This document shows, one piece after another, positions 2,774 through 29,521 of a DNA stretch of 29,521 bases. Position 1 is the stretch's first letter, and every line of letters starts with the position of its first letter. Source of the DNA: Nitrospinota bacterium (lineage in GTDB: Bacteria > Nitrospinota_A > UBA7883 > JACRGQ01); contig JACRGR010000062.1 in the NCBI GenBank assembly GCA_016212275.1, positions 1 through 29,521 of the forward strand. Direction: 5' to 3'. The notes beneath the pieces were generated by a model. It did no database searches. It had not been told where the DNA came from and worked only from the letters and a program-made list of their open reading frames with translations. A program made the translations under genes and the position numbers.

Positions 2774-2810
2774 CAACGCTTCCCGCTTACCTCAAACGCA
2801 AATAAAAAAA

Positions 2811-2834
2811 CCCCTCTCTGGCGCGAGGGGTTTT
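2811..2834. terminator. rho-independent terminator, bidirectional (A-run / CCCCTC-loop-GAGGGG / T-run)
   Basis: aaaaaaaCCCCTCtctggcgcgaGAGGGGtttt lies immediately after asd. The A-tract on the left lets it also terminate minus-strand transcription coming from the Ehr-like operon side. Confidence 0.7.
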
Positions 2835-2884
2835 AAAGAGGAGGTTTGGAAAAAACGGGAATCTGGCGCTTCCCGCGTGTAACC

Positions 2885-3097
2885 TTAGATCATCGTTCCC
2901 ATCCTTCGCACGATCGTCCACACCTGCATGACCAGCGGCACATGCGGCAGAACCGTTCCCGCTTTCAGGCCGACCCTTATGTATCCCTTTATCGCCCGTT
3001 TGAGGCTCCGCCGCACTGGCCGCATCTCGACCAGCCGCTCCGAGCCGGGAAACTTCGGGAGTATCAGTATCGAGCTGTTTTCCGTTGGTCTCATCAT
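2885..3097 (-). CDS. hypothetical small basic protein (70 aa), candidate only
   Basis: ORF MMRPTENSSILILPKFPGSERLVEMRPVRRSLKRAIKGYIRVGLKAGTVLPHVPLVMQVWTIVRRMGTMI. AGGGA sits 4 nt upstream of the ATG. Third-codon-position GC is about 79%, which is coding-like. It lies between the Ehr-like operon and the bidirectional terminator. No recognisable family. Confidence 0.25.
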   Translation of the reverse strand: MMRPTENSSILILPKFPGSERLVEMRPVRRSLKRAIKGYIRVGLKAGTVLPHVPLVMQVWTIVRRMGTMI

Positions 3098-3545
3098 TCA
3101 ATCCCTTTTTTGCGGCGGCAAGCCTTGGTGGCATGGTCCGTTGCGCGTTTTTTCATCCGCCGAGGCAACACTTATCGGGGCCGGATGTGGTGGATCGTGC
3201 CCGGTGCCATACGCTTATACCAACGCTTGCCGCATTTTCTCCCCAAGCTTTGTTTCTAAATCAAACCGCTTGCCAGCACCCAAAGTGCCGTCGCGGAAAT
3301 CGCGGCAAACAGGTCCGCCATGATCTCCCACATGTCCAATGCTATCGTTTTCGTCTTCATGCCCAGACATAAAGCATCAGCCGTGCCACACCCCTACCCT
3401 GCTGTTTTTAAGGGTCTTACGCACCTCTATAGGCCAAATGCGGTTATAGAAAAGATAATCCCCGTATGAATTTGTAAACGTGCTTATCCTGTGTTTTTTG
3501 GCAAACCAAAGAGGACGCAGAGAAAGAAAGCCGGAAATGGGCGCT

Positions 3546-4076
3546 CTACTTCCCTATCGAGAGGCGGCGCGCGCCGACCGCTTCTAATATCCCCGAAAGC
3601 AGGACGGACGGCGAAGGGGGACAGCCGTGGATGTAAGCGTCCACCGGGATGACGTTCGCCACGCCGCCCAACGAAGCGTAACTTTTTCCGAAAATACCGC
3701 CGTTGTAGCCGCAGTCCCCCACCGCCACCACCAGCTTGGGGGGCGGCATTGCGTCATAGGTGCGTTTGAGGGCGATCGCCATATTCACGGAGACCGGGCC
3801 GGTGACCAGCAACATGTCGGCAAACCGCGGCGAGGCGGTGAACGTGATGCCGAACCGCTCGCAGTTGTAGATGGAGTTGTTCAGCGCGTGTATCTCCAAT
3901 TCGCAGGCGTTGCACGAACCGGCGTCCACCTGGCGAATCGTCAGGCTCCCGGCGAACACCCGCTTCACCGATTCCTCCAGCCGCGCCCCCACCAATTCGA
4001 TCTTCGCCTCTTCTTCCGGCGGCAAAGGCTCGGTGACGATGCCGGTGCGGAATATCTGGCGCAGTATCCTTAACAT
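3546..4076 (-). CDS. NuoB/HycG-like [4Fe-4S] small subunit of an Ehr-type (hydrogenase-related) membrane complex
   Basis: 176 aa. VDAGSCNACELEI ... NCERFGITFTASPRFADMLLVTGPV ... VGDCGYNGGIF ... VIPVDAYIHGCPPSP aligns with group-4 hydrogenase small subunits and NuoB. Four Cys are available for one FeS cluster. RBS GAGAGGAA precedes the ATG. Confidence 0.85.
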   Translation of the reverse strand: MLRILRQIFRTGIVTEPLPPEEEAKIELVGARLEESVKRVFAGSLTIRQVDAGSCNACELEIHALNNSIYNCERFGITFTASPRFADMLLVTGPVSVNMAIALKRTYDAMPPPKLVVAVGDCGYNGGIFGKSYASLGGVANVIPVDAYIHGCPPSPSVLLSGILEAVGARRLSIGK

Positions 4077-4088
4077 TTATTCCTCTCA

Positions 4089-4134
4089 TTTCGCCCGATG
4101 GGCGAAACGCGGACAGGAGTGTCCGCGCCACCAA
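4089..4134 (+). repeat. twin-hairpin REP-like repeat, copy A (intercistronic, inside the Ehr-like operon)
   Basis: tttcgccc-gat-gggcgaaa followed by cgcggaca-ggag-tgtccgcg and then ccaccaa. Near-identical copies occur at 23933-23973 (direct) and 23861-23899 (inverted). Confidence 0.6.
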
Positions 4135-4155
4135 CGGGGACCAGCATCATTCTCA

Positions 4156-5724
4156 TCACAGGTCGTTCCCCGAATAGGAATTGTTGAAACTCTTGTTCAC
4201 CAGCGGGAAATCCGGCACCATGTCCTGCTTTATGGACTGCTCCAGCGCCAGCCAGTTCACCGCCGATGGATCGCGCACCATGCACCGGTTGATGCCGCCG
4301 TCCGGCCCCGCCTGCACCCAGCAGAGTATTTCGCCGCGCCATCCTTCCACCGCGGAGAACCCCGCGCTCCCCGCCGCCGGAGCGGTCAGCGGCGCGGACG
4401 TTGCCCCTGTCGGCATTCCCGCAAGTATTTCAGCGATCAGCCGCGCGCCGTCGCGCACTTCCTCCACGCGCACCCATCCGCGGGAATGCGCGTCGCCCGA
4501 ATGCAGGACGTGCATTTTCGGCACCACCGTGTCGTACGGAGGGAAAGGATTTTGCAAACGCGCGTCCAGCCCCTGCCCGCTTGCCCGCGCCGCGATCCCC
4601 ACCACGCCGAGGTCGAACGCCGCCGATTGCGGAAAAACGCCGCTCCCGTACAGCCGGTCTTTCAGCGAGGCGTTGTCGTCGTATATCTCCATCAGCCGCT
4701 TGAATTCCGCTATCACGCCGTGGATCTCAAGGGCGATATCCTCCTTCGCCCCTTCCGCCAGGTCCACCGAAACGCCGCCCGGCACGATGGCGTCCATCAG
4801 CAACCGGTGGCCGAACAGCGTTTTGTTCATGCGGAGCATGGTTTCGCGCAAGTTCCAGAACTGGTAGTAGCCGAAGGCGAAGGCCACGTCGTTGCACAGC
4901 GCCGCAAGGTCCGCCAGGTGGTTCGCCATCCGCTCGCGCTCCAGCAAAAGCCCGCGCAACCACTGCGCGCGCGGCGGCACGGCGCACCCGGCGGCGGACT
5001 CCACCGCCATCGCATAAGCCAGCGCGTGGGCCACCGTGGTATCGCCCGAAACCCTGCCCGCCAGCTTTGCCGCGTCTTGCCACGAAAGGGACTCGAACCG
5101 TTTTTCAATGCCTTTGTGGACGTACCCCAGCCTTGCCTCCAAGTTCAGTATCTTTTCCCCCACCGCCTGAAAACGGAAATGCCCCGGCTCGATGATGCCG
5201 GCATGCACCGGCCCGACCGGGATCTCAAACACCCCTTCCCCCACGGCGGGGATCCACTGATACGTCCCTTCCACGCGGGGCATTGGCGCGGAAGCGTCGC
5301 ACGTCTTGCGCAGGGGATAGGCGTCTTGCGGCCAATCCTCGTGCTTTATCCACGGACGCGGGTCGGGATGCCCCTTAACCGTTAACCCCATCAGGCTCAT
5401 GATCTGCCGCTCGAAACGGAACGCCGCCAGATACTGGCCGGTGAGGGTGCCAAACGCGGGCTTTGCCGCGTCCAATGCCGCGGTGACGAGCAGATACTCG
5501 GTGCCAAGATTGTACGCCGCCCAAACGGCAAAGCCGTTCCCGAATGGCGTTTCATCCACGCCCCACTCGGCGGCAAGGCGCGCGCCAGCCGTTTTCATCA
5601 CCTCGGCGGAACGGACGAAATACGGGAGCGGCACCCGCAGAGCGGTGGCTCCCCCCTGCGGCAGTTCGATGATATTCGACTCGCGGAGATCGGCAACCAG
5701 CGCGCGGTGGAGTGTGTCGGTCAT
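4156..5724 (-). CDS. fused NuoC-NuoD / HycE-like large subunit lacking the NiFe-binding cysteines (Ehr-type large subunit)
   Basis: 522 aa. A NuoC-like N-terminal domain is joined to a NuoD/[NiFe]-hydrogenase-large-subunit-like domain (PVGPVHAGIIEPGHFRF, LEARLGYVHKGIEK). The N-terminal CxxC site is absent. The C-terminal site reads RCMVRDPSAVNW where hydrogenases have DPCxxCxxH. ATGA overlap with the upstream gene. Confidence 0.88.
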   Translation of the reverse strand: MTDTLHRALVADLRESNIIELPQGGATALRVPLPYFVRSAEVMKTAGARLAAEWGVDETPFGNGFAVWAAYNLGTEYLLVTAALDAAKPAFGTLTGQYLAAFRFERQIMSLMGLTVKGHPDPRPWIKHEDWPQDAYPLRKTCDASAPMPRVEGTYQWIPAVGEGVFEIPVGPVHAGIIEPGHFRFQAVGEKILNLEARLGYVHKGIEKRFESLSWQDAAKLAGRVSGDTTVAHALAYAMAVESAAGCAVPPRAQWLRGLLLERERMANHLADLAALCNDVAFAFGYYQFWNLRETMLRMNKTLFGHRLLMDAIVPGGVSVDLAEGAKEDIALEIHGVIAEFKRLMEIYDDNASLKDRLYGSGVFPQSAAFDLGVVGIAARASGQGLDARLQNPFPPYDTVVPKMHVLHSGDAHSRGWVRVEEVRDGARLIAEILAGMPTGATSAPLTAPAAGSAGFSAVEGWRGEILCWVQAGPDGGINRCMVRDPSAVNWLALEQSIKQDMVPDFPLVNKSFNNSYSGNDL

Positions 5725-7169
5725 TTCAGTATCTCCACGGCGTCCAAAAACCAGCGTTGCAGGAATTGCGGGAAATAAAGGCCCAACACCAGCACCAGCG
5801 CCATGTGCAAGAACACCGGCACATGCGCGGCGGATATTTCCTGGCGTACCTCCGGCGGATCGCCGAACACCATCGTCTGCATTTTGCGGAACAGCGCGGC
5901 AAAGGCCACTGCGATGCCAAGCATGAACAACGGGATGAGCATCGGCGCGTATTTCATGGTGGCGGTGAGGATGAGGAACTCGCTGGCGAACACGCCGAAG
6001 GGCGGCATGCCGGTGATGGCGATAACGCCGAACACCATCCCCCAGCCCACCAGCGGGTTCGCCTTTATCAGCCCCTTTATGTTCGCAATGTGCTGTGTGC
6101 CGCTGATCTGCGCGGCGTGCCCCACGGTGAAGAAGATGGAGGACTTGGTGAGGCTATGCACCAGCATGTGCAATAGGCCGCCGAACGTGGCTATCGGCCC
6201 GCCCAGCCCGAAAGCGAACGTGGCGATGCCCATGTGCTCTATGGACGAGTAGGCGAACATCCGCTTCACGTCCTTTTGCCGCAGAAGGGAGAACGAAGCC
6301 ACGATGAGGGAAAGGATGCCGAAACCCATCATGATCTCCCCCGCCCAATTGGAACCCATTGCCTTGTTCACCAGCACCTTGCACCGCACCAGCGCATACA
6401 ATGCGATGTTCAGCAAAAGGCCGGAGAGCACCGCCGATATGGGAGTGGGGCCTTCGCTGTGCGCGTCCGGGAGCCAGTTATGGAGCGGCACAAGCCCCAC
6501 CTTCGTGCCGTACCCCACCACGAAAAAGATGAAGGCCAGCGACAGGATGGTCGGTTCCAGACGGTCGCTTACCAGTATCAGGTTCGTCCACAACAGCCCT
6601 TGAGTCCCCTCCCCCACCACTTTTTCCGAGGCGAAGTAAAGGAGAATGGTGCCGAACAGCGCCAGCGCGATCCCCACGCCGCAAAGGATGAAATATTTCC
6701 ACGCGGCCTCCACGGACGACGGCGTGCGGTACAGCGACACGAGGAGCACGGTGGAAAGCGTGGCAAGCTCCATCGAGATCCACAGCACCCCCACGTTGTT
6801 GGTCAAAAGGGCCAACAGCATGGCGAAGATGAACATCTGGAACATGGCGTGGTAAAAGCGCATCCCCTTGTGCCCCACTTTGCCGTGCGCCCTCTCAAAT
6901 CGCATGTAGTTGCGGGAAAAGACGGCGGTGGTGGTGGAGACGAACGTGGTGAGCACCACCAGATAGACGTTGAAAGCGTCCACGAAGAAATAGTTGTCGG
7001 CGGCGGTCATTCCGCCTGAGTGGTACACGTCCACCGCGAGGAACAGGCTGATGACGAACGTGGCGAACGAGGCGAGAATGTTGATCTCGGCGGCTAAGCG
7101 GCGGTCGCCGATGATCGCCAGCATGACGGCGGAAAACAGCGACACCGTGAAGAGCGCGACGATGATCAT
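5721..7169 (-). CDS. NuoN/NuoM (MrpD)-like antiporter-type membrane subunit
   Basis: 483 aa from MIIVALFTV... and contains NWLPDAHSEGPTPISAVLSGLLLN. The 208-aa N-terminal extension in the ORF track is H/R/G-rich non-protein-like sequence. The ATG at 7169 overlaps the stop of the upstream gene. Confidence 0.85.
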   Translation of the reverse strand: MIIVALFTVSLFSAVMLAIIGDRRLAAEINILASFATFVISLFLAVDVYHSGGMTAADNYFFVDAFNVYLVVLTTFVSTTTAVFSRNYMRFERAHGKVGHKGMRFYHAMFQMFIFAMLLALLTNNVGVLWISMELATLSTVLLVSLYRTPSSVEAAWKYFILCGVGIALALFGTILLYFASEKVVGEGTQGLLWTNLILVSDRLEPTILSLAFIFFVVGYGTKVGLVPLHNWLPDAHSEGPTPISAVLSGLLLNIALYALVRCKVLVNKAMGSNWAGEIMMGFGILSLIVASFSLLRQKDVKRMFAYSSIEHMGIATFAFGLGGPIATFGGLLHMLVHSLTKSSIFFTVGHAAQISGTQHIANIKGLIKANPLVGWGMVFGVIAITGMPPFGVFASEFLILTATMKYAPMLIPLFMLGIAVAFAALFRKMQTMVFGDPPEVRQEISAAHVPVFLHMALVLVLGLYFPQFLQRWFLDAVEILK

Positions 7170-7837
7170 GCCCCCTCGTGCTCCTTGAGCTTTTCCATTT
7201 CCTTCAGGTCCAGGCTGTCGAACGTGGTGCGTATCTGGAAAATGAATATGCCGAATATGAACGCCGCGATGAGGATGTCCAGCGCCACGCCCAGCTCGAT
7301 GACCAGCGGCATCCCGTAGGTGGCGCTGGTGGCGGCGAAGAACAGGCCGTTCTCCAGCGCGAGGAACCCGATGATCTGCGTGACCGCCTTTTTGCGGGTG
7401 ATCATCATCAAAAAGCCGAGCAAAACCGTGGAGAGCGCCACCGCCAGCGTGGTGCGCGTGACCAGCGTGGAAAGCTCGCGGATGGGCGCCGTGAGGTGGT
7501 AGGAGAATATCACCAGCACGATGCCGATGAGCATGGTGGCCGGGATGTTCACCAGCGGCTCCACGTCGCGGTATATGTTCAGCCGGTTCACGAGGACATA
7601 GAGGATGTACGGGAGCACCACGACCTTGAGCGTGAGCGTGAGCGCGGCGGAAATGTACAGGTGGTTCATGCCCGCCGTGTATGCCACCAGCGCGGTGCTG
7701 GCGGAAAGGAACAGCCCCTGCCACGCGAATATACGCAATAGCCCGTAGATGCGCCGCTGGACCAGCAGGCCGAACGAGGTGAGCAGGATGCACGCCGCCA
7801 GCACGTTGATGATCTGAGCGGTGAACGTCATTTTCAT
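7166..7837 (-). CDS. HyfE / NuoK-like small membrane subunit
   Basis: 223 aa polytopic membrane protein with GFLALENGLFFAATSATYGMPLVIELGVALDIL, as in hydrogenase-4 component E and NuoK. A 1-nt gap separates it from the upstream NuoH-like gene. Confidence 0.8.
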   Translation of the reverse strand: MKMTFTAQIINVLAACILLTSFGLLVQRRIYGLLRIFAWQGLFLSASTALVAYTAGMNHLYISAALTLTLKVVVLPYILYVLVNRLNIYRDVEPLVNIPATMLIGIVLVIFSYHLTAPIRELSTLVTRTTLAVALSTVLLGFLMMITRKKAVTQIIGFLALENGLFFAATSATYGMPLVIELGVALDILIAAFIFGIFIFQIRTTFDSLDLKEMEKLKEHEGA

Positions 7838-7838
7838 C

Positions 7839-8789
7839 CTACATTTCCAGAATGAAATGGGAGAGCATCCCTAGAGTTGCGATAAGGAACGCGGTGCCCA
7901 AAAATTCGGGCACGCGGAAAATACGCATCTTCGCCAGCCCCGTTTCCGCCAGCACGATGCCCGCCGCCACCAGCGCCAGCTTGCCCGCCATGATGAGGAC
8001 CGCCAGCGGAATGTCCATCAGGTCGTCCCCCTGCGGTATGCCCCACGGCACGAACAGCGCCACCCCCAGGCTGGTGAAAATGAACAGCTTCATCATCCCC
8101 GCCCATTCCACCAGCGCGAGGTAGCGCCCGGAATATTCCAGTATCATCCCCTCGTGGATCATGGTCAGTTCAAGGTGCGTGACCGGGTTGTCCACCGGCA
8201 CGCGGCCCGTTTCCGCCAGCAGGGTGAGGACAAAGGCGATGGCGGCGAACACCATGGAGGGGCTAAGGAAAAAGTTCTGCTGGCCGATGAACCGCACCAT
8301 CTCGGAAAGTGAGGTGGTGTGGCCGAAAAGCGACACCGTGAAGGTGGTCATTAGCACCGCGGGTTCGGCCAGCGACGCGATCATCATCTCCCTGCTTGAA
8401 CCCATGCCGCCGAACGCCGTGCCCACATCCATCCCCGCCAGCGCGATGAAAAACCGCCCGATGGCGAATAGCGCGACCAGCGCGATAATGTCCGCCGTGG
8501 CCGACAGCGGCAGGTCCACCGATATGATCGGGATGATGGCCCCGGCCATCAGCACCGAACCGAACAACAAGTACGGCGTGAACCGGAACACCCACGAGGC
8601 GTTGTGGGCCAGCACGATGTCCTTCGAGAAAAGCTTGATGAGGTTGCGGTACGGCTGAAGCACCCCCGGCGAGGTGCGCCCCTGCGTCCAGCATTTCAGC
8701 GCCCGCACCCACCCGGCCAACAGGGGCGCGGCGAATAGCACCAGCGCGATCTGGCACGCCTCTATCAGCAGGGGAAAAGCCTCCCTCAC
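7839..8789 (-). CDS. NuoH / HycD-like membrane subunit
   Basis: 317 aa starting at a GTG that overlaps the upstream stop (GTGA). ETGRVPVDNPVTHLELTMIHEGMILEYSGRYLAL matches the NuoH/HycD E.GR.PFD..E.ESEL..G...EYSG motif. The N-terminal extension in the ORF track was rejected. Confidence 0.85.
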   Translation of the reverse strand: MREAFPLLIEACQIALVLFAAPLLAGWVRALKCWTQGRTSPGVLQPYRNLIKLFSKDIVLAHNASWVFRFTPYLLFGSVLMAGAIIPIISVDLPLSATADIIALVALFAIGRFFIALAGMDVGTAFGGMGSSREMMIASLAEPAVLMTTFTVSLFGHTTSLSEMVRFIGQQNFFLSPSMVFAAIAFVLTLLAETGRVPVDNPVTHLELTMIHEGMILEYSGRYLALVEWAGMMKLFIFTSLGVALFVPWGIPQGDDLMDIPLAVLIMAGKLALVAAGIVLAETGLAKMRIFRVPEFLGTAFLIATLGMLSHFILEM

Positions 8790-10834
8790 AGCGCCACCAG
8801 CAGGAGGAAGAGGATAGTGAAGAAGGAATACGCCAGGTAGATGTGTATCCTTCCGTGTTGCAGACGCGCGGTGTGTTTGGCGAGGCGGAACGCGAGGTCC
8901 GCCACCGGGCGGTAGAACCAGCCCCAAGCGCGGTCGCGCACGCGAACGCTATAGTTCACTTTGGCGGGAAATTCCGCGGGACGTCCATCCGGCAGGCCGG
9001 GCCGCACCCGCTCCTTGATGTGGAACAGGTAGCCGAATATCAGCCGCGGCGGCATGGAGAAGGCGGTGGAAGTGTACTGCATGGTGGAAGTGATCTTCTC
9101 GAACCCGCAGTCCCACAGCGGCACGCGGTGGATGGCGCTTTTTTTCGAGCGGAGCGTGAGGAACACCACCAGCAAAACGGAGGCGATCCCCAGCAAAACC
9201 ATCGGCGCGGCGTACGAGGCGCGCTGGGCCGATACCGGCGTAAGCCACAGCCAGCCAACCTCCCCCGCGGATCTCGCGATGGTCTCCCCCGCCAGTTGCG
9301 ACGAGAGATTGCCCATCCACGCGATGACGACGGTGGGGAAAACGCCGAGCAACAGGCACGCGGTCGCCGCGATCATCATTCCCGCGCGCATCGAGGGGGT
9401 GGCGTCGTGCGCGGTTGCACATGCTTCGCTCCGGCAATGGCCGAGGAAGGTGACGCCGAACGCCTTGACGAAACAGGAGGCCGAGAGCGCGGCCACCAAC
9501 GCCAAAAGCGCCGCCCCCAGCGGGATGACGAGGTTCAAGTGCTGGCTGGGTAACGATGGCGACATGAGGAACGCCTGGAACGTGAGCCATTCGGACACGA
9601 ACCCGTTGAACGGGGGAAGCGCCGATATGGACAGGCACCCCACCAGGAACAGCGGCGCGGTCCATTTCATTTTGTGTATCAGCCCGCCCATCTTTTCCAT
9701 GTTCCGCACGCCGGTGGCATGGAGCACCGCGCCCGCCCCCATGAACAAAAGCCCCTTGAACATGGCGTGGTTGAGCGTGTGGTACAACGCGGCGGTGATG
9801 GCCAGCGCCGCCATCAGCGGCTGGTGGAACGAAAGGAATATCATCCCCAGCCCCAGCCCCACGAGGATGATGCCTATGTTCTCCACGGACGAGTAAGCCA
9901 ATAACCGCTTGAGGTCATTTTCCAATAATGCGGCCAGCACGCCCAGGATGGCGGATGCCAGCCCCACGGCCAGCACCAGTTCCCCCCACCACAGTTGCGG
10001 CGTGTGCAGAATGTCGAACGTGAAGCGCACGATGCCGTAAATGGCGGTCTTCAGCATCGCGCCGCTCATCAGGGCGGACACATTGCTCGGCGCGGCGGGG
10101 TGCGCTTCCGGAAGCCAGACATGGAGCGGGACGATGCCCGCTTTCGCGCCGAACCCCAAAAAGGCGAGCACAAAAGCGGTGCTCGCCCACGCCGGGGGAA
10201 GGCTTGCGCCGCGCATCGCGTCGAAGGTATATCCGTGAAACGTGTCGAACCCGGCGGCGAACCCCGCCATCACGCCGAACGCCAGGAGGATCGCCACCGC
10301 ACCGATGTGCGCCACCACCAAATAAATGTAAGCGGCACGGCGGTTCTCCACCACGCCATCTTCATACAGGACGAGGAAATAGGAAGCGGCGGCCATCAGT
10401 TCCCACGAGATGAGGAAAAAATAGGCGTCGTCCGATACGAGCACCAAAAGCATCCCCGCGAGAAACAGCGGGTAAAAGATGGCGAGGTGGGTGACGGATC
10501 TTTTGCCGATGAACCCGGCGATATATCCCCGTGAGTAAATCGAAACGCAAAACGCCAAGAGCGAAACAACGGTTATGAAAAACCCCGAAAGCGGGTCGAG
10601 CCGGAGGTGGAACGGCAGGTCGGGAAGCCCGACGGGAAGAATAAGCGTTTCCGCCTCCCCGCCCGCCACTGCCAGTATCCCCGCGAAAAGGGAAAACAGG
10701 GAAGCGGCTGAAAAAACCGGGAAAATGATTGAAACAATAAGGTGTTGGCGCCGGTGGAACAATGGCACTATGGCCACGGACGCGATAAGGATGAATATGG
10801 CGGTTAAGACTAGGCTACTTAAAGAACCTTCCAT
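8786..10834 (-). CDS. NuoL / HyfB-like long antiporter-type membrane subunit
   Basis: 682 aa. VWLPEAHPAAPSNVSALMSGAMLKTAIYGIVRF and a long C-terminal extension as in HyfB/NuoL. First gene of the minus-strand operon. Confidence 0.88.
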   Translation of the reverse strand: MEGSLSSLVLTAIFILIASVAIVPLFHRRQHLIVSIIFPVFSAASLFSLFAGILAVAGGEAETLILPVGLPDLPFHLRLDPLSGFFITVVSLLAFCVSIYSRGYIAGFIGKRSVTHLAIFYPLFLAGMLLVLVSDDAYFFLISWELMAAASYFLVLYEDGVVENRRAAYIYLVVAHIGAVAILLAFGVMAGFAAGFDTFHGYTFDAMRGASLPPAWASTAFVLAFLGFGAKAGIVPLHVWLPEAHPAAPSNVSALMSGAMLKTAIYGIVRFTFDILHTPQLWWGELVLAVGLASAILGVLAALLENDLKRLLAYSSVENIGIILVGLGLGMIFLSFHQPLMAALAITAALYHTLNHAMFKGLLFMGAGAVLHATGVRNMEKMGGLIHKMKWTAPLFLVGCLSISALPPFNGFVSEWLTFQAFLMSPSLPSQHLNLVIPLGAALLALVAALSASCFVKAFGVTFLGHCRSEACATAHDATPSMRAGMMIAATACLLLGVFPTVVIAWMGNLSSQLAGETIARSAGEVGWLWLTPVSAQRASYAAPMVLLGIASVLLVVFLTLRSKKSAIHRVPLWDCGFEKITSTMQYTSTAFSMPPRLIFGYLFHIKERVRPGLPDGRPAEFPAKVNYSVRVRDRAWGWFYRPVADLAFRLAKHTARLQHGRIHIYLAYSFFTILFLLLVAL

Positions 10835-20043: not shown

Positions 20044-22098
20044 TCAATCGGTATTCATCAGGAACAGCCGGTGTTGGCCTTGAATCCCTTTAAGTTCAAA
20101 AAAGCCGATGAGACGGGTTACGAACCCGGCCTCCTTCGTTATATCCGTATTCACCGATTCGGTGAGCACCACCCGGTTCACCAGCGGCAGTTCTTCCGGC
20201 TTCATGCCCCCGTCCGCCGGTTTCATCCCGGCGGCCTTCACCCCTTCCACGCGGAAGGTCATATTCACGGCGGTGCCGAGGCGGTCCCCTTTGTCGTCCA
20301 CGCGGGTCTCCCCCTGGTTGATGGCGATGCGTATGTCTATCCGCTCCTGCGGGGGGAGCGTCTCGTTGGTCCGGCGCATGGTCAGGAGTATCTCCTTGGC
20401 GAAATTGACGGCGTTCTTCACTTCGTTGAAGGTCATCAGATAGCCGTCGCCGGTGCTCTTGGTGAACTTCACGCGGTATTTCGAGGCGATCGGCTTCGTC
20501 AATTCCACCAGCCGGTTGGTGAGCTTGAAGGCGAAGTCGTCGCCGTACTTCGAGCCGATGTCGGTGGAGTTGGCGAGGTCGAGCACCAAGATGGCTTCCT
20601 TGAGCACCTTCACGTTCCCCACCAGCGGGCTGGTGAAGATGGTGCTCCCGCCGGTCCACTTGCTCCGCTCCTGCTCGGCGATGATCTGGTTGGCCTTCAC
20701 CGCGTGGCCGGTCATCTGCTTGATGATGTCCAGCGCGGTGTCACGCATCTCGGCGTCGGAATCTTTCACGCAGGCTTTTATCAGCGGTAGCGTGGCCTTT
20801 TCCTGCGCGCGGCCCAGCGCCTTCAGCGCCTCCAGGCGCACGGTGCGCTCCGGGTCGTCAAGAAAATCGGCAAGGTATGAAATGGCCTTTTCGCCGCCGA
20901 TCTCCCCCAGCGCGGCGGGCACGGTCCAGCGCACGTCGTGGTCGTCGGCCAGCGGCAGGATATGCTCGATGGCGCGCTCGTCCTTCATCTTGCCCAGCGC
21001 CACCACCGCCTTTTCGCGCACCCACCAATCCTTGTCGTTCAGCATTCCCAGCAGAGGCTCGAACGCCGCCTTGTCCGGCACACGCACGAAATACTCGATG
21101 GCGGCTCTGCGCACGTTCTCGTCCGGCGTCGCGAAAAGCTCGATGACGCGGGCGGCGACCCCCGGCACGTTCATCACCGCCAGCGCGTCGGTGGCGATCT
21201 CCCGTACCCACCAGTCGGCGTCCTGTATGCACCGGATCAGCGTTTCGGAGCCTTTCACGTTCTTGAGCTTGCTCAGTATCTCCACGCCGGCCCTGCGGAC
21301 GTTCACCTCCGCGTCCCGCATGAAGTTGATGATCTCCGGCACGATGGTCTCGTCCGCGATGTTCTCCAGCGCCTCCACCACGGCCTGCCGCACTATCATG
21401 TCGTTGTCCGTGATGCTCGGCAGTATCACCCGCGCGGCGCGCACGTTCCCCACCTGCCCCAAGGTCTGGATGACCGTTATCTTTATCTTCGGGTCCTTCT
21501 CCAGCGAGAGCAGGTCCACCAGCGCGTCAATGGAGGCGGGATCCTTTATCCTGCAGATGGCCTCGACCGCTTTTTTACGCACCCACCAGTCGGGCGATTT
21601 CAATAGGGGAAGCAGGAAGGCGCTGGCCTTCGCCCCGCCCACATCCGCTATCAGCCCCATGCTCACGCTCTTGAGATCCTTGTCCTCCTCGGAGAGGTAG
21701 GGAATCAGTTTCTCGGCCACCGAGGGCGAGGCAAGCGCGCGCAAAAGTTCCGCTATCCCCCGTCGGCAGGTGGCGTCCGCATCCTTCAACCGCTCCACGA
21801 GGCGCGCGACCGCGCCGGGGCCGGTCTTTTGCTGGATGATCTCGCGGGCGCGTGTGCGCAACTGCTCTTTGCTGTCGCCCAAAAGCGTGATGTAACCGTC
21901 GAGCATCTCCTTGTCATAGAGGCTGGCAAGGTATTTGTCCAGATCGGCAAAAAGTATCTTGTTCGCCTTGAAGGCGTCCACCAAAGCTTTCAGCCCGTCT
22001 TCGCCGTATTCGCGCAGGGACTTTAAGGTCTCGGCGTGGTCTTTTCCCACCTCGGTAAGCTGGGAAATGAGCCGCGATATTTTGAACCCTTCAAACAT
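20044..22098 (-). CDS. HEAT-repeat (PBS-lyase type) protein fused to a class III adenylate/guanylate cyclase catalytic domain
   Basis: 684 aa. Repeated DPDWWVRKKAVEAI / DADWWVREIATDAL / DKDWWVREKAVVAL HEAT-like units. C-terminal cyclase core ILVLDLANSTDIGS...KFTKSTGDGYLMTF...GTAVNMTFRVEG with the metal-Asp, Lys and Asn/Arg positions present. Confidence 0.85.
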   Translation of the reverse strand: MFEGFKISRLISQLTEVGKDHAETLKSLREYGEDGLKALVDAFKANKILFADLDKYLASLYDKEMLDGYITLLGDSKEQLRTRAREIIQQKTGPGAVARLVERLKDADATCRRGIAELLRALASPSVAEKLIPYLSEEDKDLKSVSMGLIADVGGAKASAFLLPLLKSPDWWVRKKAVEAICRIKDPASIDALVDLLSLEKDPKIKITVIQTLGQVGNVRAARVILPSITDNDMIVRQAVVEALENIADETIVPEIINFMRDAEVNVRRAGVEILSKLKNVKGSETLIRCIQDADWWVREIATDALAVMNVPGVAARVIELFATPDENVRRAAIEYFVRVPDKAAFEPLLGMLNDKDWWVREKAVVALGKMKDERAIEHILPLADDHDVRWTVPAALGEIGGEKAISYLADFLDDPERTVRLEALKALGRAQEKATLPLIKACVKDSDAEMRDTALDIIKQMTGHAVKANQIIAEQERSKWTGGSTIFTSPLVGNVKVLKEAILVLDLANSTDIGSKYGDDFAFKLTNRLVELTKPIASKYRVKFTKSTGDGYLMTFNEVKNAVNFAKEILLTMRRTNETLPPQERIDIRIAINQGETRVDDKGDRLGTAVNMTFRVEGVKAAGMKPADGGMKPEELPLVNRVVLTESVNTDITKEAGFVTRLIGFFELKGIQGQHRLFLMNTD

Positions 22099-23860: not shown

Positions 23861-23899
23861 TGGTGGCACGGTCACTCCTGCCCGTGGCGTGTCCATCGG
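23861..23899 (-). repeat. REP-like repeat, copy C (inverted orientation, degenerate)
   Basis: The reverse complement ccgatggacacgccacgggcaggagtgaccgtgccacca aligns with copy A (ccgatgg...caggagtg...gccacca). Confidence 0.5.
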
Positions 23900-23932
23900 A
23901 CGCGCGCATTCCCTTTGCCCGGAAGTCTTGCG

Positions 23933-23973
23933 CCCTCTGGGCGTAACGCGGACAAGAGTGTCCGTGCCACCAA
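23933..23973 (+). repeat. REP-like repeat, copy B (direct orientation)
   Basis: ccctctgggcgtaacgcggacaagagtgtccgtgccaccaa versus copy A cccgatgggcgaaacgcggacaggagtgtccgcgccaccaa. The cgcggaca-NNNN-tgtccgYg hairpin is conserved. Copies B and C together form a roughly 113-nt imperfect palindrome. Confidence 0.6.
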
Positions 23974-24037
23974 TGAGATAGGACTTTTGCCGTGCGGAAA
24001 TCAATAATGCCGCGATCTTCCAATATGAACCGTTTAA

Positions 24038-24098
24038 TTGTCATGCCCGTGAAAACGGGCATCCAGAACCTGGATTCCCGCCTTCGCGGGAATGACAA
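24038..24098. other. 61-nt cloverleaf-like structured element (outer stem plus three hairpins) in the kdtA 5' region
   Basis: ttgtc [atgcccgt-gaaa-acgggcat] [ccag-aac-ctgg] a [ttcccgc-cttc-gcgggaa] t gacaa. All four stems are perfectly complementary. Loops are only 3-4 nt, so it is not a tRNA. Confidence 0.45.
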
Positions 24099-24134
24099 CC
24101 AGTATGTGCATCATTGTTTTTTTCGGCGCTGGCG

Positions 24135-25519: not shown

Positions 25520-26170
25520 ATGAGTGAAGCGGAAATCAAAAAACCGGTACGGGTGATACTGGTAGAGGACGACCTGCTCCAACTGGATGTGCTAAAACTG
25601 ACGCTGGCCTCGGATGACGACATCGAGGTCGTCGGCGCCTATTCGGATCCGCGAAAAGCGTACGAGGACTTGGACCGGTCAAAGCCGGAACTCTTGCTCA
25701 CCGACATCGGCCTGCCGGGCATGACCGGCATTGAACTGATCGAGATGGTGAAAAAGAAACTGCCGGAAATAGAGATCATCGCCCTCACGGTGTTCGAGGA
25801 CATAAAAACGGTATTCGAGGCGATCAAGGCGGGGGCCAACGGCTATCTCCTCAAAAGCTCGTCGGCCAAGGACCTTTTGAAAGCGATCAAGGATATCCGC
25901 GCCGGCGGCGCGCCGATCACCCCCAAGATCGCCCGCGCGATGCTCAAGGATTTCCAATCGAAGGATGATGGCGGTGATACGGCGCTCTCCAACCGGGAGC
26001 GGGAAATACTCCAGGAAGTGGAAAAGGGGCTGGGGTACAAGGAAGTTGCCGAAACGGTGAACCTGAGCGTACATACCGTCCACTGGCATATCAAAAATAT
26101 TTTCGCTAAATTGCACGCCAAGAACAAGCGCGACGCCATATCGAAGGCCAGGGAAAAAGGCATCCTGTAA
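25520..26170 (+). CDS. NarL/FixJ-family response regulator (REC + LuxR-type HTH)
   Basis: 216 aa. Receiver VRVILVEDD...LLLTDIGLPGMTG...KSS followed by the LuxR HTH REREILQEVEKGLGYKEVAETVNLSVHTVHWHIKNIFAKL. Confidence 0.9.
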   Translation: MSEAEIKKPVRVILVEDDLLQLDVLKLTLASDDDIEVVGAYSDPRKAYEDLDRSKPELLLTDIGLPGMTGIELIEMVKKKLPEIEIIALTVFEDIKTVFEAIKAGANGYLLKSSSAKDLLKAIKDIRAGGAPITPKIARAMLKDFQSKDDGGDTALSNREREILQEVEKGLGYKEVAETVNLSVHTVHWHIKNIFAKLHAKNKRDAISKAREKGIL

Positions 26171-26229
26171 CCCCGCTTCCCCGGCGTTCCCGCTCCTTAC
26201 CGTTCGAAATTAACCACAGAGGGGAACGA

Positions 26230-26298
26230 TCCGCAGATTTCACGGATTCCGCAGATGAAAATAGATCATCAATCCGTGTCATCTGTGTAATCTGCGGA
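26230..26298. promoter_or_regulatory. dyad-symmetric CAGAT repeat cluster between convergent genes (bidirectional terminator or protein-binding site)
   Basis: tCCGCAGATttcacggattCCGCAGATGAaaatagatcatcaatccgtgTCATCTGtgtaATCTGCGGa. Two direct TCCGCAGAT copies face two inverted ATCTG copies. A T-rich tract follows on the plus strand. Confidence 0.35.
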
Positions 26299-26374
26299 TA
26301 GAGTTCCTGTTTCTTATTCTCCATGCCTCGCGGTAATTCCGGATTGTTTGGAAGACAGTGGAAAGTGATGGGGG

Positions 26375-28078: not shown

Positions 28079-29284
28079 TCAGCCTTTCGGATTTTGCATG
28101 CGGCGGGCAAGCGTCTCGAGTTCTTTTTTCGCTTCCTGCAAACGGGGGTTGAGGTGCGTGACCTTCGTGAAGAGCTTGAACGCCTCTTCCAGCTTGTTCC
28201 CCTCCACATACGCCTTGGCCATATTGAAGTACAGCCCTTCGTCGTGCGGGTCCACCTTGATGGCCTTTTCGTATTCCGTGATCGCCTCCTGCCATTTCCC
28301 CTGCCGGCGCAGGGCGATACCCAGCCGGTTGTAGATATGCACGCTATCGGCGTGCTTCTCCAGCGTTTTCCGGAAAAACCCTTCCGCCATTTGGGGCTTG
28401 CCCTGGGTGAGCAGTTCTTCCGCGATCTCGGTGGCCTTGCGCGGATCATACCGCACCGCGTTTTCAAGCGCCGCGCGGGCCGCTACGTCGTCCCCTTTTT
28501 TCATGTGTATCTTGGCGATCTCCACATGCCGCTCCGCGTTCGCCGGGCTTATCTCGGACGCTTTTTGGAGCGAGGAGAGGGCGGCGGCTTCGTCCCCCTG
28601 CTTCATGTACACTTCGGCGCTTTTCACATGCGCCTTCAGGTACTGCGGGTTGCTGACCACCGCCTCCTGGTACACCGCTTGGGCCTTGTCGTACTCGCCC
28701 ATCAGTTCGTGCAGATCCCCGATGTGCACCAGCACGCGGGCGCTCCCCTGCTTGTTCATCACCTCGTTGAAAACTGCCAGCGCCTTTTCGTACTGCCCCA
28801 TTTTCGCCAGCGCCTCGCCGGCCTTGAGCAGTTTCACATATTCCGGTGGATTTTCCCGCGCGTCCAGGATGGCCTCTATTTTCTCTTCCAGCGTCTTGGC
28901 CACGAACGGCTTGATGATATAGCCGTTCACGCCTATTTCCCCCGCCTGGGCCACTTGCCCCTTGTCTATCTCGGCGGTCACCATCAGTATCGGGGTGTCG
29001 TGTATCTTCGCGTCGGACCGTATCTCCCGCGCCGCGTGAATGCCGGGCAGGCGGGGCATATTCCAATCCAAGAGGGCGAAGAGGCACTTCTCCTCGTGGG
29101 TCTTGATGACCTTGATGGCGGTATCGCCGTCTTCCGCTTCGACGACGTTCATGATCCCCACTTGGCGGAGCATGTTCTTGAGCGTCTTCCGCATGTTGGA
29201 CATATCGTCCGCCACGAGGATATAGCCGCCTTTGAAATAGTCAGCCAGGGATAAAGGTTTTTTCCCTTGATCGGTAGAACTCAT
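28079..29284 (-). CDS. response-regulator receiver domain fused to TPR repeats
   Basis: 401 aa from an ATG overlapping the upstream stop (ATGA). CheY-like REC YILVADDMSNMRKTL...ALLDWNMPRLPGI...ILMVTAEID...GYIIKPF, then TPR units. The 29-aa N-terminal extension in the ORF track was rejected. Confidence 0.85.
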   Translation of the reverse strand: MSSTDQGKKPLSLADYFKGGYILVADDMSNMRKTLKNMLRQVGIMNVVEAEDGDTAIKVIKTHEEKCLFALLDWNMPRLPGIHAAREIRSDAKIHDTPILMVTAEIDKGQVAQAGEIGVNGYIIKPFVAKTLEEKIEAILDARENPPEYVKLLKAGEALAKMGQYEKALAVFNEVMNKQGSARVLVHIGDLHELMGEYDKAQAVYQEAVVSNPQYLKAHVKSAEVYMKQGDEAAALSSLQKASEISPANAERHVEIAKIHMKKGDDVAARAALENAVRYDPRKATEIAEELLTQGKPQMAEGFFRKTLEKHADSVHIYNRLGIALRRQGKWQEAITEYEKAIKVDPHDEGLYFNMAKAYVEGNKLEEAFKLFTKVTHLNPRLQEAKKELETLARRMQNPKG

Positions 29285-29521
29285 GCCTTGGCGCTTCCCT
29301 GGAATAACGCATCCAGTTCCTCCTTGGCTTCCTTGAAATCGGGTTGAAGTTCCGCCGCCTTCGAGAAGCATTTAGCCGCTTCCCGCTTGTTCCGTCCTTC
29401 AAGGTAAGCCTTCCCCATATTGAAATAGATTACCTCGTCTTCCGGGTCAATTGCCAGCGCTAGTTTATACTCGTCCACCGCCTCTTTCCATTTCCCCTGC
29501 CGCCGCAGGGCGATACCCAAG
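29281..29521 (-). CDS. TPR-repeat protein, C-terminal fragment (gene continues beyond the window end); paralogous to the C-terminus of the downstream REC-TPR protein
   Basis: ...GIALRRQGKWKEAVDEYKLALAIDPEDEVIYFNMGKAYLEGRNKREAAKCFSKAAELQPDFKEAKEELDALF* is closely similar to the C-terminus of the 28079-29284 protein (LGIALRRQGKWQEAITEYEKAIKVDPHDEGLYFNMAKAYVEG...). Confidence 0.7.
   Translation of the reverse strand, partial: LGIALRRQGKWKEAVDEYKLALAIDPEDEVIYFNMGKAYLEGRNKREAAKCFSKAAELQPDFKEAKEELDALFQGSAKA

Follow-up and report, generated by a model that had tools for sequence, protein, structure and literature searches.

What fills the gap between the genes for the large (L) and small (S) subunits of a hydrogenase-like operon in a Nitrospinota bacterium, how did it come to be there, and does it matter for the expression of the two genes? 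The question is raised by positions 4089–4134 of a contig of 29,521 nt, which was analysed at its full length and is referred to here as the window. An earlier note on this DNA had described the stretch as a twin-hairpin, REP-like repeat of a dispersed family, inserted between L and S, and had proposed that it can set subunit stoichiometry through mRNA stability or partial termination.

The host operon and the L–S gap

The operon is encoded on the minus strand and is group-4-hydrogenase-like, with the Pfam domains Proton_antipo_M, NADHdh, Complex1_30kDa plus 49kDa, and Oxidored_q6. It comprises a HyfB/NuoL-like gene (8786–10834), a NuoH-like gene (7839–8927), a gene for a small membrane protein (7166–7837), an antiporter-like subunit gene (stop at 5721 and start at about 7169 as judged from an ATGA overlap, the longest ORF extending to 7793), the L gene (4156–5724) upstream of the repeat unit, and the S gene (3546–4076) downstream of it. 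L is a large subunit of a fused NuoC/NuoD-like type, and S, the small subunit, resembles NuoB; from the complex I module, a 1:1 ratio is expected of NuoB-like and NuoD-like subunits. Because L is without all four NiFe cysteine ligands, the corresponding stretches reading RVSGDTTVAH and NNSYSGNDL, the label “Ehr-like” given to the operon in the earlier note is a fair one.

The L stop codon occupies 4158–4156 and the S start codon 4076–4074, which leaves a gap of 79 nt (4077–4155), the length originally reported. On the mRNA strand, the order is UGA, 21 nt, UUGGUGG, hairpin B, hairpin A, UGAGAGGAAUAA and AUG. From the L stop codon to the foot of hairpin B there are 28 nt, and S has a Shine–Dalgarno sequence of its own, GAGAGGA at 4087–4081, 2 nt past the hairpin foot and thus directly after the hairpins, where it had been placed before. 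At the other junctions of the operon there are ATGA overlaps (7169–7166 and 5724–5721) and a 1-nt gap at 7838, and the NuoH-like gene has an ambiguous start after 8786. The claim that the L–S junction is the only non-overlapping one in the operon is therefore too strict, but the 79-nt gap is clearly the largest. Since the C-terminus of L and the N-terminus of S align end to end with those of relatives, the extra DNA is purely intergenic.

The approximately 770 nt downstream of S (window 2777–3545) contain no recognisable gene and give only sub-threshold Rfam matches. A 115-aa ORF in this region (2787–3134) has no Pfam match, the GC content falls to 0.47–0.48 in 200-nt windows across 3300–3599, and terminator-like hairpins with T-runs are found on the minus strand at 2876–2855 and 2834–2807, about 700 nt past S. 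An ABC-transporter gene directly follows S in one relative (L038).

The unit at 4089–4134

The unit consists of two hairpins, each with a perfect 8-bp stem, and of a CCACCAA that comes after them on the plus strand, exactly in the sequence and at the coordinates first described. Hairpin A (TTTCGCCC-GAT-GGGCGAAA, 4089–4107) is a small stem-loop that marks the spacer end of the doublet in Nitrospinota units. Hairpin B (CGCGGACA-GGAG-TGTCCGCG, 4108–4127) is the REP hairpin, with an 8-bp stem and a 4-nt loop that reads CUCC on the mRNA strand. The head, or tag (4128–4134), is CCACCAA on the plus strand and TTGGTGG on the minus strand, which places GTGG at the 5′ foot of the hairpin. All three elements are assigned to the minus strand, where the unit reads as a 5′-TTGGTGG head, the REP hairpin and the second small hairpin, and it is this strand, the GGUGG strand, that the operon mRNA carries. 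There is no partner unit in the 79-nt gap, so 4089–4134 is a singlet, i.e., half of a REPIN, and not a REPIN doublet. It is extragenic, as are all units in the window, and the flanking gene ends are supported by homology.

Folding of the minus-strand transcript, a check suggested in the earlier note, returns two stable hairpins in the centroid structure, but the fold of the gap RNA by itself is unexceptional for its GC content (z −1.6 to −1.8). As the gap fold is not significant, the hairpins are judged real because of the repeat family described below, and not on thermodynamic grounds.

Several other identities were considered for the unit and rejected. A tRNA-like element or CCA-end mimic (GCGCCACCA) does not agree with the stem and loop geometry, which is not that of a T-arm, and CCACCA is found on the strand antisense to the operon; ARAGORN predicts no tRNA in the window. 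As for a riboswitch, small RNA or leader, the Rfam 15 covariance models give no match at gathering thresholds anywhere in the window, and no match overlapping the REP units at E values up to 1. No direct repeat that could represent a target-site duplication borders 4089/4134 or 23861/23973 when the flanks are read by eye, and a MITE with such a duplication was thus set aside. Sequestration of the Shine–Dalgarno sequence was not relied on either: an outer helix that partly pairs it is present in the minimum-free-energy structure and absent from the centroid. There is no terminator-like or promoter-like site at the unit, the terminator scan covering 3400–4400 on both strands.

An inverted doublet at 23.9 kb

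A search of the window with up to three mismatches returns exactly three units, at 4108–4131, 23947–23970 and, inverted, 23863–23886, as compared with none in 100 shuffles. The unit was earlier said to recur twice near 23.9 kb. Both copies are present, but they form one inverted doublet of 113 nt, which had gone unmentioned. This doublet (23861–23973) is located between a DUF374 gene and a Kdo-transferase gene, and has its tails facing outward. The left unit (23861–23905, plus strand) is composed of TGGTGG at 23861–23866, hairpin B at 23867–23886 with one mismatch, and hairpin A at 23887–23905. A spacer of 22 nt (23906–23927) separates it from the right unit (23928–23973, minus strand), with hairpin A at 23928–23946, hairpin B at 23947–23966 and CCACCAA at 23967–23973. 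The right unit is 87% identical over 46 nt to that at 4089–4134. The entire doublet folds as a single long hairpin on either strand (plus, −70.6 kcal/mol, z −6.55; minus, −67.9 kcal/mol, z −6.26), and 23861–23973 thus displays the REPIN architecture of inverted REPs, a short spacer and a long hairpin.

A second, unrelated palindromic repeat, GTCATGCCCGTGAAAACGGGCAT...CTGGATTCCCGCCTTCGCGGGAATGAC, adjoins the REPIN at 24036–24100, and is probably another widespread REP-like family. It occurs also in L013 (2806–2832), L041 (653–679), the L–S gap of L076, and L014 (7410–7436), in the latter beside a REP array that flanks a transposase gene. The repeat has weak, sub-threshold Rfam matches to WsnRNA46 and FtrB, and yields spurious peptides such as IPAKAGIQ and FPRRRESR.

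Other repeats in the window are of different kinds. Five diverged direct repeats of about 50 nt, spaced 180–189 nt apart, are found at 20801–21591 within a 684-aa ORF (20044–22098, minus strand), and are likely to code for protein repeats of about 62 aa in tandem. Just downstream of a LuxR-type response regulator gene (25520–26170), an inverted repeat of 28 nt, ATCCGCAGATTTCACGGATTCCGCAGAT / ATCCGTGTCATCTGTGTAATCTGCGGAT, whose arms are separated by 15 nt, occupies 26229–26299; it could be an operator or a terminator. The segments 28200–28323 and 29396–29519, 1196 nt apart, are 72–93% identical, which suggests tandem paralogous genes at the end of the contig.

Distribution, architecture and covariation of the family

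The family was followed by scanning 185,579 species-representative genomes (596 Gb) with the strict 26-nt pattern CRCGGNCANGAGTGNCCGYGCCACCA, for which a rough estimate gives about 0.07 matches by chance. The pattern is found at 37 loci in public genomes. Sixteen of the matches are located on 14 contigs of a single Nitrospinales MAG, nzgw266, together with doublet partners; further matches come from nzgw267 and the Nitrospinota MAG NC_groundwater_950, and, outside Nitrospinota, from several Acidobacteriota/Terriglobia MAGs, two Zixibacteria MAGs and one unclassified MAG. With three units at two loci in the 29.5-kb window as well, the repeat is indeed a dispersed family, as had been proposed. 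The core hairpin has the consensus CRCGGNCA-RGAG-TGNCCGYG-CCAC; it is dispersed in Nitrospinota MAGs, and is present also in Acidobacteriota, Zixibacteria and Planctomycetota. In the collected loci, a relaxed scan gives 77 hairpins, two or three of them apparently due to chance, and CCAC is constant across 75 relaxed matches, with the caveat that GTGG/CCAC, which nearly all plausible members of the family have, was required by the regular expression used for collection. The same unit sits in unrelated contexts and in both orientations. In a six-frame test, the fraction spanned by stop-free frames is 0.48 at the other loci, a depletion as compared with 0.83 for random positions, though the test discriminates poorly at the given GC content.

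With a slightly different regular expression, the Nitrospinota loci and the window together contain 44 units, of which 12 are singlets and the others make up 16 doublets, all with tails outward and none with tails inward. Compensatory changes are seen in five of the eight pairs of stem B among 30 distinct members of the family, with a covariation score of 0.445 as compared with 0.135 for shuffles. Because a member had to have at least 7 of 8 pairs to be collected, the paired percentage, but not the compensatory changes, is inflated, and the covariation count is overstated. Examples are GGACA/TGTCC, GGGCA/TGCCC and GGCCA/TGGCC, and CGCGG/CCGCG versus CACGG/CCGTG. The RGAG loop, the top pairs and the tag are constant across the 30 core sequences. 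Hairpin B and the tail of 4089–4134 are identical to those of units in three other loci (L005, L027 and L031).

Hairpin A was assessed by folding each sequence separately, the variable loop length being disruptive to an ungapped 50-nt alignment. It is predicted at the same position in every one of the 27 distinct Nitrospinota units, among which its stem has at least 10 different sequences, and is absent from the Acidobacteriota copies. Its G·T wobbles are mostly on the GGTGG strand (mean −13.3 versus −11.8 kcal/mol), which is the more stable strand by at least 1 kcal in 13 units and the less stable one in 2. This is suggestive of the GGTGG strand being the one required to fold, in a set of units that are not independent of each other.

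In nzgw266, a REPIN doublet is embedded in a longer conserved repeat that has an outer inverted repeat, CATAAATAATGTTCC ... GGGCATTATTCATG (L013 3180–3350; also L003, L012, L026 and L032), which suggests that the doublet is either nested within another palindromic element or part of a composite mobile unit. Truncated half-units consisting of the loop, 3′ arm and tag (e.g., AGAGTGTCCGCGCCACCAA) are fused directly to complete units in L009 (approximately 1450–1500), L031 (approximately 4930–4990), L014 (6700–6730 and 7340–7390) and the flanks of L043. On the GTGG strand, the break falls immediately after the loop CTCT, and may be a trace of RAYT activity in the loop, by cleavage or strand transfer.

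Association with RAYT transposases

A candidate for the enzyme that mobilises the family is encoded at locus L014 of nzgw266, where a 162-aa ORF (6763–7251, minus strand) is bracketed by arrays of the unit. The protein scores 83.6 bits against the NCBIfam equivalog model NF047646, REP_Tyr_transpos (“REP-associated tyrosine transposase”; cut-off 80), and 27.8 bits against Pfam Y1_Tnp (cut-off 23), as compared with 24 bits for an IS200 model, which is far under the cut-off of 55. It aligns with the structure of E. coli TnpA_REP (PDB code 4er8) over residues 21–143 with weak similarity (E 7e-4). An alignment of seven homologs shows the HUH histidines and the catalytic tyrosine to be invariant, and homologs are labelled RayT in their source records.

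Additional loci were obtained by exact-protein look-up of RAYT homologs (the contexts of L041, L043 and L044, and in addition L042). In L033, from Acidobacteriota, the homolog is 40% identical and has five core hairpins around it. The L041 homolog is 82% identical, with a twin-hairpin doublet that begins 5 nt past the stop codon; a RAYT protein identical to it is present in L042, a 705-nt contig that ends inside a hairpin. Arrays of units are located on both sides of the L043 homolog (62% identity), and the 55% identical homolog in L044, from Planctomycetota, has GTAG-GCGGGGCA-CTCT-TGCCCCGC arrays on both sides, i.e., the canonical GTAG tag on the same hairpin top. In each of the five distinct loci (L014, L033, L041, L043 and L044), a core hairpin and the RAYT gene are thus no more than about 150 nt apart. 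As a control, the core regular expression has no match in 197 kb of 83 unrelated loci, and 10 matches in 12 kb of RAYT loci. The window does not contain a RAYT gene, as judged by tblastn. It may be that a single RAYT clade has kept its hairpin top (GNCA-RGAG-TGNC) essentially unchanged across at least four phyla.

The family thus combines a maintained GC-rich palindrome with a GTRG-type tag, an extragenic position and, in relatives, repeats that flank a cognate RAYT. What had been called REP-like can be upgraded to a true REP, in view of the GTGG-type head, the compensated stem, the tails-outward doublets and the RAYT-flanking hairpins in related genomes.

Insertion at the L–S junction

Orthologous junctions were collected by exact-protein look-ups and one metagenome scan with the S protein. 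The survey comprises 76 relatives in which the L end and the S start can be placed, and its loci reach 1.2 kb upstream, which covers the L–S junction and not the other junctions of the operon. In the closest relative, L038, a Nitrospinales MAG with an S protein 81–85% identical, the junction is TGA-TGGGGGCTAC-ATG, with a gap of 10 nt. The gap is at most 28 nt in 48 of the 76 relatives, mostly as a 4-nt ATGA overlap or a gap of up to 16 nt, and the REP unit is present at none of the 76 L–S junctions. Since the junctions of most relatives are tight, none carries the REP, and the ends of L and S align, the unit appears from this comparison to be a lineage-specific addition to an ancestrally tight junction, so that the description of it as inserted holds. 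In this presence/absence comparison, with the unit missing at L038 and at 75 other junctions, the nearest comparator has only 81–85% identity in S, which is too distant for dating the event or for demonstrating a transposition. The ancestral L–S junction was probably translationally coupled.

Among the related operons (loci L045–L124, L039 and L040), the remaining 28 relatives have L–S gaps of 35–495 nt with unrelated and often palindromic inserts, of which 14 fold significantly better than shuffles (z < −2), seven of them at z < −3. A 40-nt gap with a different hairpin is found in L039, and a 176-nt AT-rich gap in L040. One insert family, TAACCACGGGCGCTTCGCG...CCGTGGTTA, recurs in L063, L072, L077 and L079, long palindromes are present in L061, L070, L075 and L107, and the insert in L076 is the CTGGATTCCTGCCTTCGCAGGAATGAC element, which also adjoins the doublet in the window. 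Several unrelated palindromic or MITE-like families are represented, and the L–S junction is a recurrent landing site for inserts. Either this position, ahead of the operon's last gene, is no more than a safe one for such elements, or a structured spacer is useful there.

Comparison with known REP systems

As in the E. coli REP/BIME system with its RAYT, TnpA_REP (PDB code 4er8), the repeats described here are imperfect, GC-rich palindromes that carry a conserved tetranucleotide at their 5′ foot, they are extragenic and multi-copy, and the same repeats flank a HUH/Y1 transposase gene in which the HUH motif and the tyrosine are conserved. The 5′ tetranucleotide of the REP palindrome is needed by TnpA_REP for binding and cleavage (PMC3479197). 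This tag is GTAG in E. coli, but GTGG (GGTGG) in our units, for which the E. coli guide-base model (PMC3479197) would predict cleavage at CC and not at CT. Furthermore, the stem at 4089–4134 is a perfect 8 bp with a 4-nt loop, and the Nitrospinota units have an extra adjacent hairpin.

REPINs flank RAYT genes (PMC5581495), and are defined by a pair of inverted REPs, singlets being decaying remnants according to Bertels and Rainey (PMC3337134). As for the REPINs of Pseudomonas fluorescens SBW25 (Bertels and Rainey 2011, PMC3116915, PMC3337134), the doublets in the present family are inverted REPs with a short spacer that form a long hairpin, they predominate over a minority of singlets, and they adjoin the RAYT gene. 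The phylum and the sequence are different, however, and the singlet at 4089–4134 has intact stems and no visible decay. An intact singlet with two perfect stems could reflect either recent insertion or selection for the hairpins. Relative to both the E. coli and Pseudomonas paradigms, the family is distinguished by the GTGG tag, by a spacer-end hairpin that is kept even in singlets, and by its host phyla.

Closer parallels are offered by the GTAG superfamily. In the GTAG-repeat survey, which defines 24 families (Di Nocera et al. 2013, PMC3733652), the GTAG tag can degenerate to GTRG or GTGG, the predominant dimer type has the tag outside, and some spacers end in small stem-loops; the survey does not mention Nitrospinota and reports no GTAG repeats for Acidobacteriota. 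Shared features are a degenerate GTRG tag with a GTGG variant, e.g., in the GTAG-20 family of Opitutus terrae, predominant tags-outward dimers, stems of 6–9 bp, small stem-loops at the spacer ends and an association with tyrosine transposases (PMC3733652). The likeness is one of tag and architecture to the superfamily as a whole. By its palindrome and tag, the doublets of its family, its location outside genes and the repeats around RAYT genes, 4089–4134 is, as far as its sequence can tell, a GTAG-superfamily REP/REPIN element with a RAYT.

With respect to position, the unit resembles the intercistronic REPs of E. coli and Salmonella (malE-malF and hisJ-hisQ; Higgins 1982, Newbury 1987 and Stern 1988, as cited in PMC12306157 and PMC3337134), which are also located between two cistrons and transcribed in the mRNA, and whose stable mRNA hairpins can block 3′-exonucleases. 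In those systems, however, an upstream periplasmic-binding protein is needed in excess, whereas S is an obligate 1:1 partner of L here. [quoted passage not shown] 2015).

Function and alternative explanations

The proposal of partial termination is unsupported, and intrinsic termination is unlikely: the hairpins lack a U-tract, and a scan of both strands in 3400–4400 shows no terminator-like site. An intrinsic terminator or attenuator between L and S would draw on the two GC-rich hairpins in the transcript, but neither of them is followed by a T/U run on either strand, and the mRNA sequence after hairpin A, AAAUGAGAGGAAUAA, does not provide the U-tract that would complete an intrinsic terminator; hairpins with T-runs exist instead about 700 nt downstream of S (2876–2807), and we consider this explanation extremely improbable. 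Similarly, the unit is not an ancestral device for setting subunit stoichiometry, since it is absent at the junctions of all 76 relatives. A selected intercistronic regulator, with hairpins that stabilise the L-containing mRNA or damp S translation to set the L:S ratio, is a different matter. It would account for the perfect state of both stems in a singlet, where decay is expected (PMC3337134), for a hairpin foot only 2 nt from the S Shine–Dalgarno sequence, and for the independent acquisition of other inserts at the junction in 28 of 76 relatives, 14 of the 28 being significantly structured; upstream mRNA is, moreover, stabilised by E. coli REPs (PMC12306157). Yet the unit is missing in the closest relative and throughout the survey, it recurs in unrelated contexts and in both orientations, and its hairpin foot, 28 nt from the L stop codon, is beyond the range of less than 16 nt for translational down-regulation. 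There is also no obvious stoichiometric need, as L/S-type subunits are expected at 1:1. On balance, selection for regulation at this junction seems unlikely. A broader version would make the Ehr/Hyf-type L–S junction a recurrent, selected landing site, where about 37% of lineages have independently retained unrelated palindromes owing to the advantage of a structured spacer, which would uncouple S from L or serve as a processing or stability boundary; we regard this as quite unlikely.

The identity of the element can be challenged as well. The Y1 fold is common to RAYTs and IS200 transposases, and the L014 protein matches Pfam Y1_Tnp and, weakly, the IS200 model, which would allow the unit to be the subterminal hairpin of an IS200/IS605-type insertion sequence, or a MITE derived from one, instead of a REP. 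This is very unlikely when it is considered that the protein passes the REP_Tyr_transpos equivalog cut-off and reaches 24 of the 55 bits demanded for IS200, that the transposase protein cluster has one member on one contig, that the repeats are gene-free, measure 45–115 nt and far outnumber the transposase, and that no target-site duplication is visible at the unit ends. A chance origin of the palindromes, and of their resemblance to the 23.9-kb units, might be argued from the modest z of the gap fold, −1.6 to −1.8, but can be dismissed altogether given three units against none in 100 shuffles, and 37 loci in public genomes. Most probably, then, 4089–4134 is a singlet of a RAYT-mobilised REP family and a lineage-specific insertion, real but ordinary.

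For such a RAYT-mobilised singlet, the following sequence of events can be envisaged. The REP unit, which on the minus strand has 5′-GGTGG, an 8-bp hairpin with a CUCY loop and a second small hairpin, would be mobilised by a RAYT, an enzyme of the HUH/Y1 type. By analogy with E. coli, the enzyme would bind the folded, single-stranded GTGG strand, and it would copy doublets or half-doublets into new intergenic sites. One such copy may have landed in the formerly tight L–S junction, and its survival there would be explained by S having a ribosome-binding site of its own. In the polycistronic mRNA, the unit is predicted to form two stable hairpins. Plausible consequences would be the loss of L-to-S translational coupling, and a barrier to 3′-to-5′ exonucleases, to the benefit of the mRNA segment upstream. 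By comparison with the intercistronic REPs, it is plausible that the unit affects mRNA stability, as a 3′-exonuclease barrier, or uncouples translation. Such RNA-level effects would be by-products of the insertion of a mobile element, and not a conserved regulatory design.

Implications

The odd 79-nt gap and the 113-nt palindrome at 23.9 kb are explained as products of one REP/REPIN family, and not as a new regulatory RNA. Within the library of papers searched, none pairs REPs with Nitrospin*, and a GTGG-tagged REP/RAYT pair is here documented in Nitrospinota. The junction survey raises the question of why structured inserts are tolerated or kept exactly between the L and S genes. Furthermore, the same core hairpin occurs with the same transposase clade in Acidobacteriota, Zixibacteria and Planctomycetota, which makes the family useful for studies of REPIN–RAYT co-evolution.
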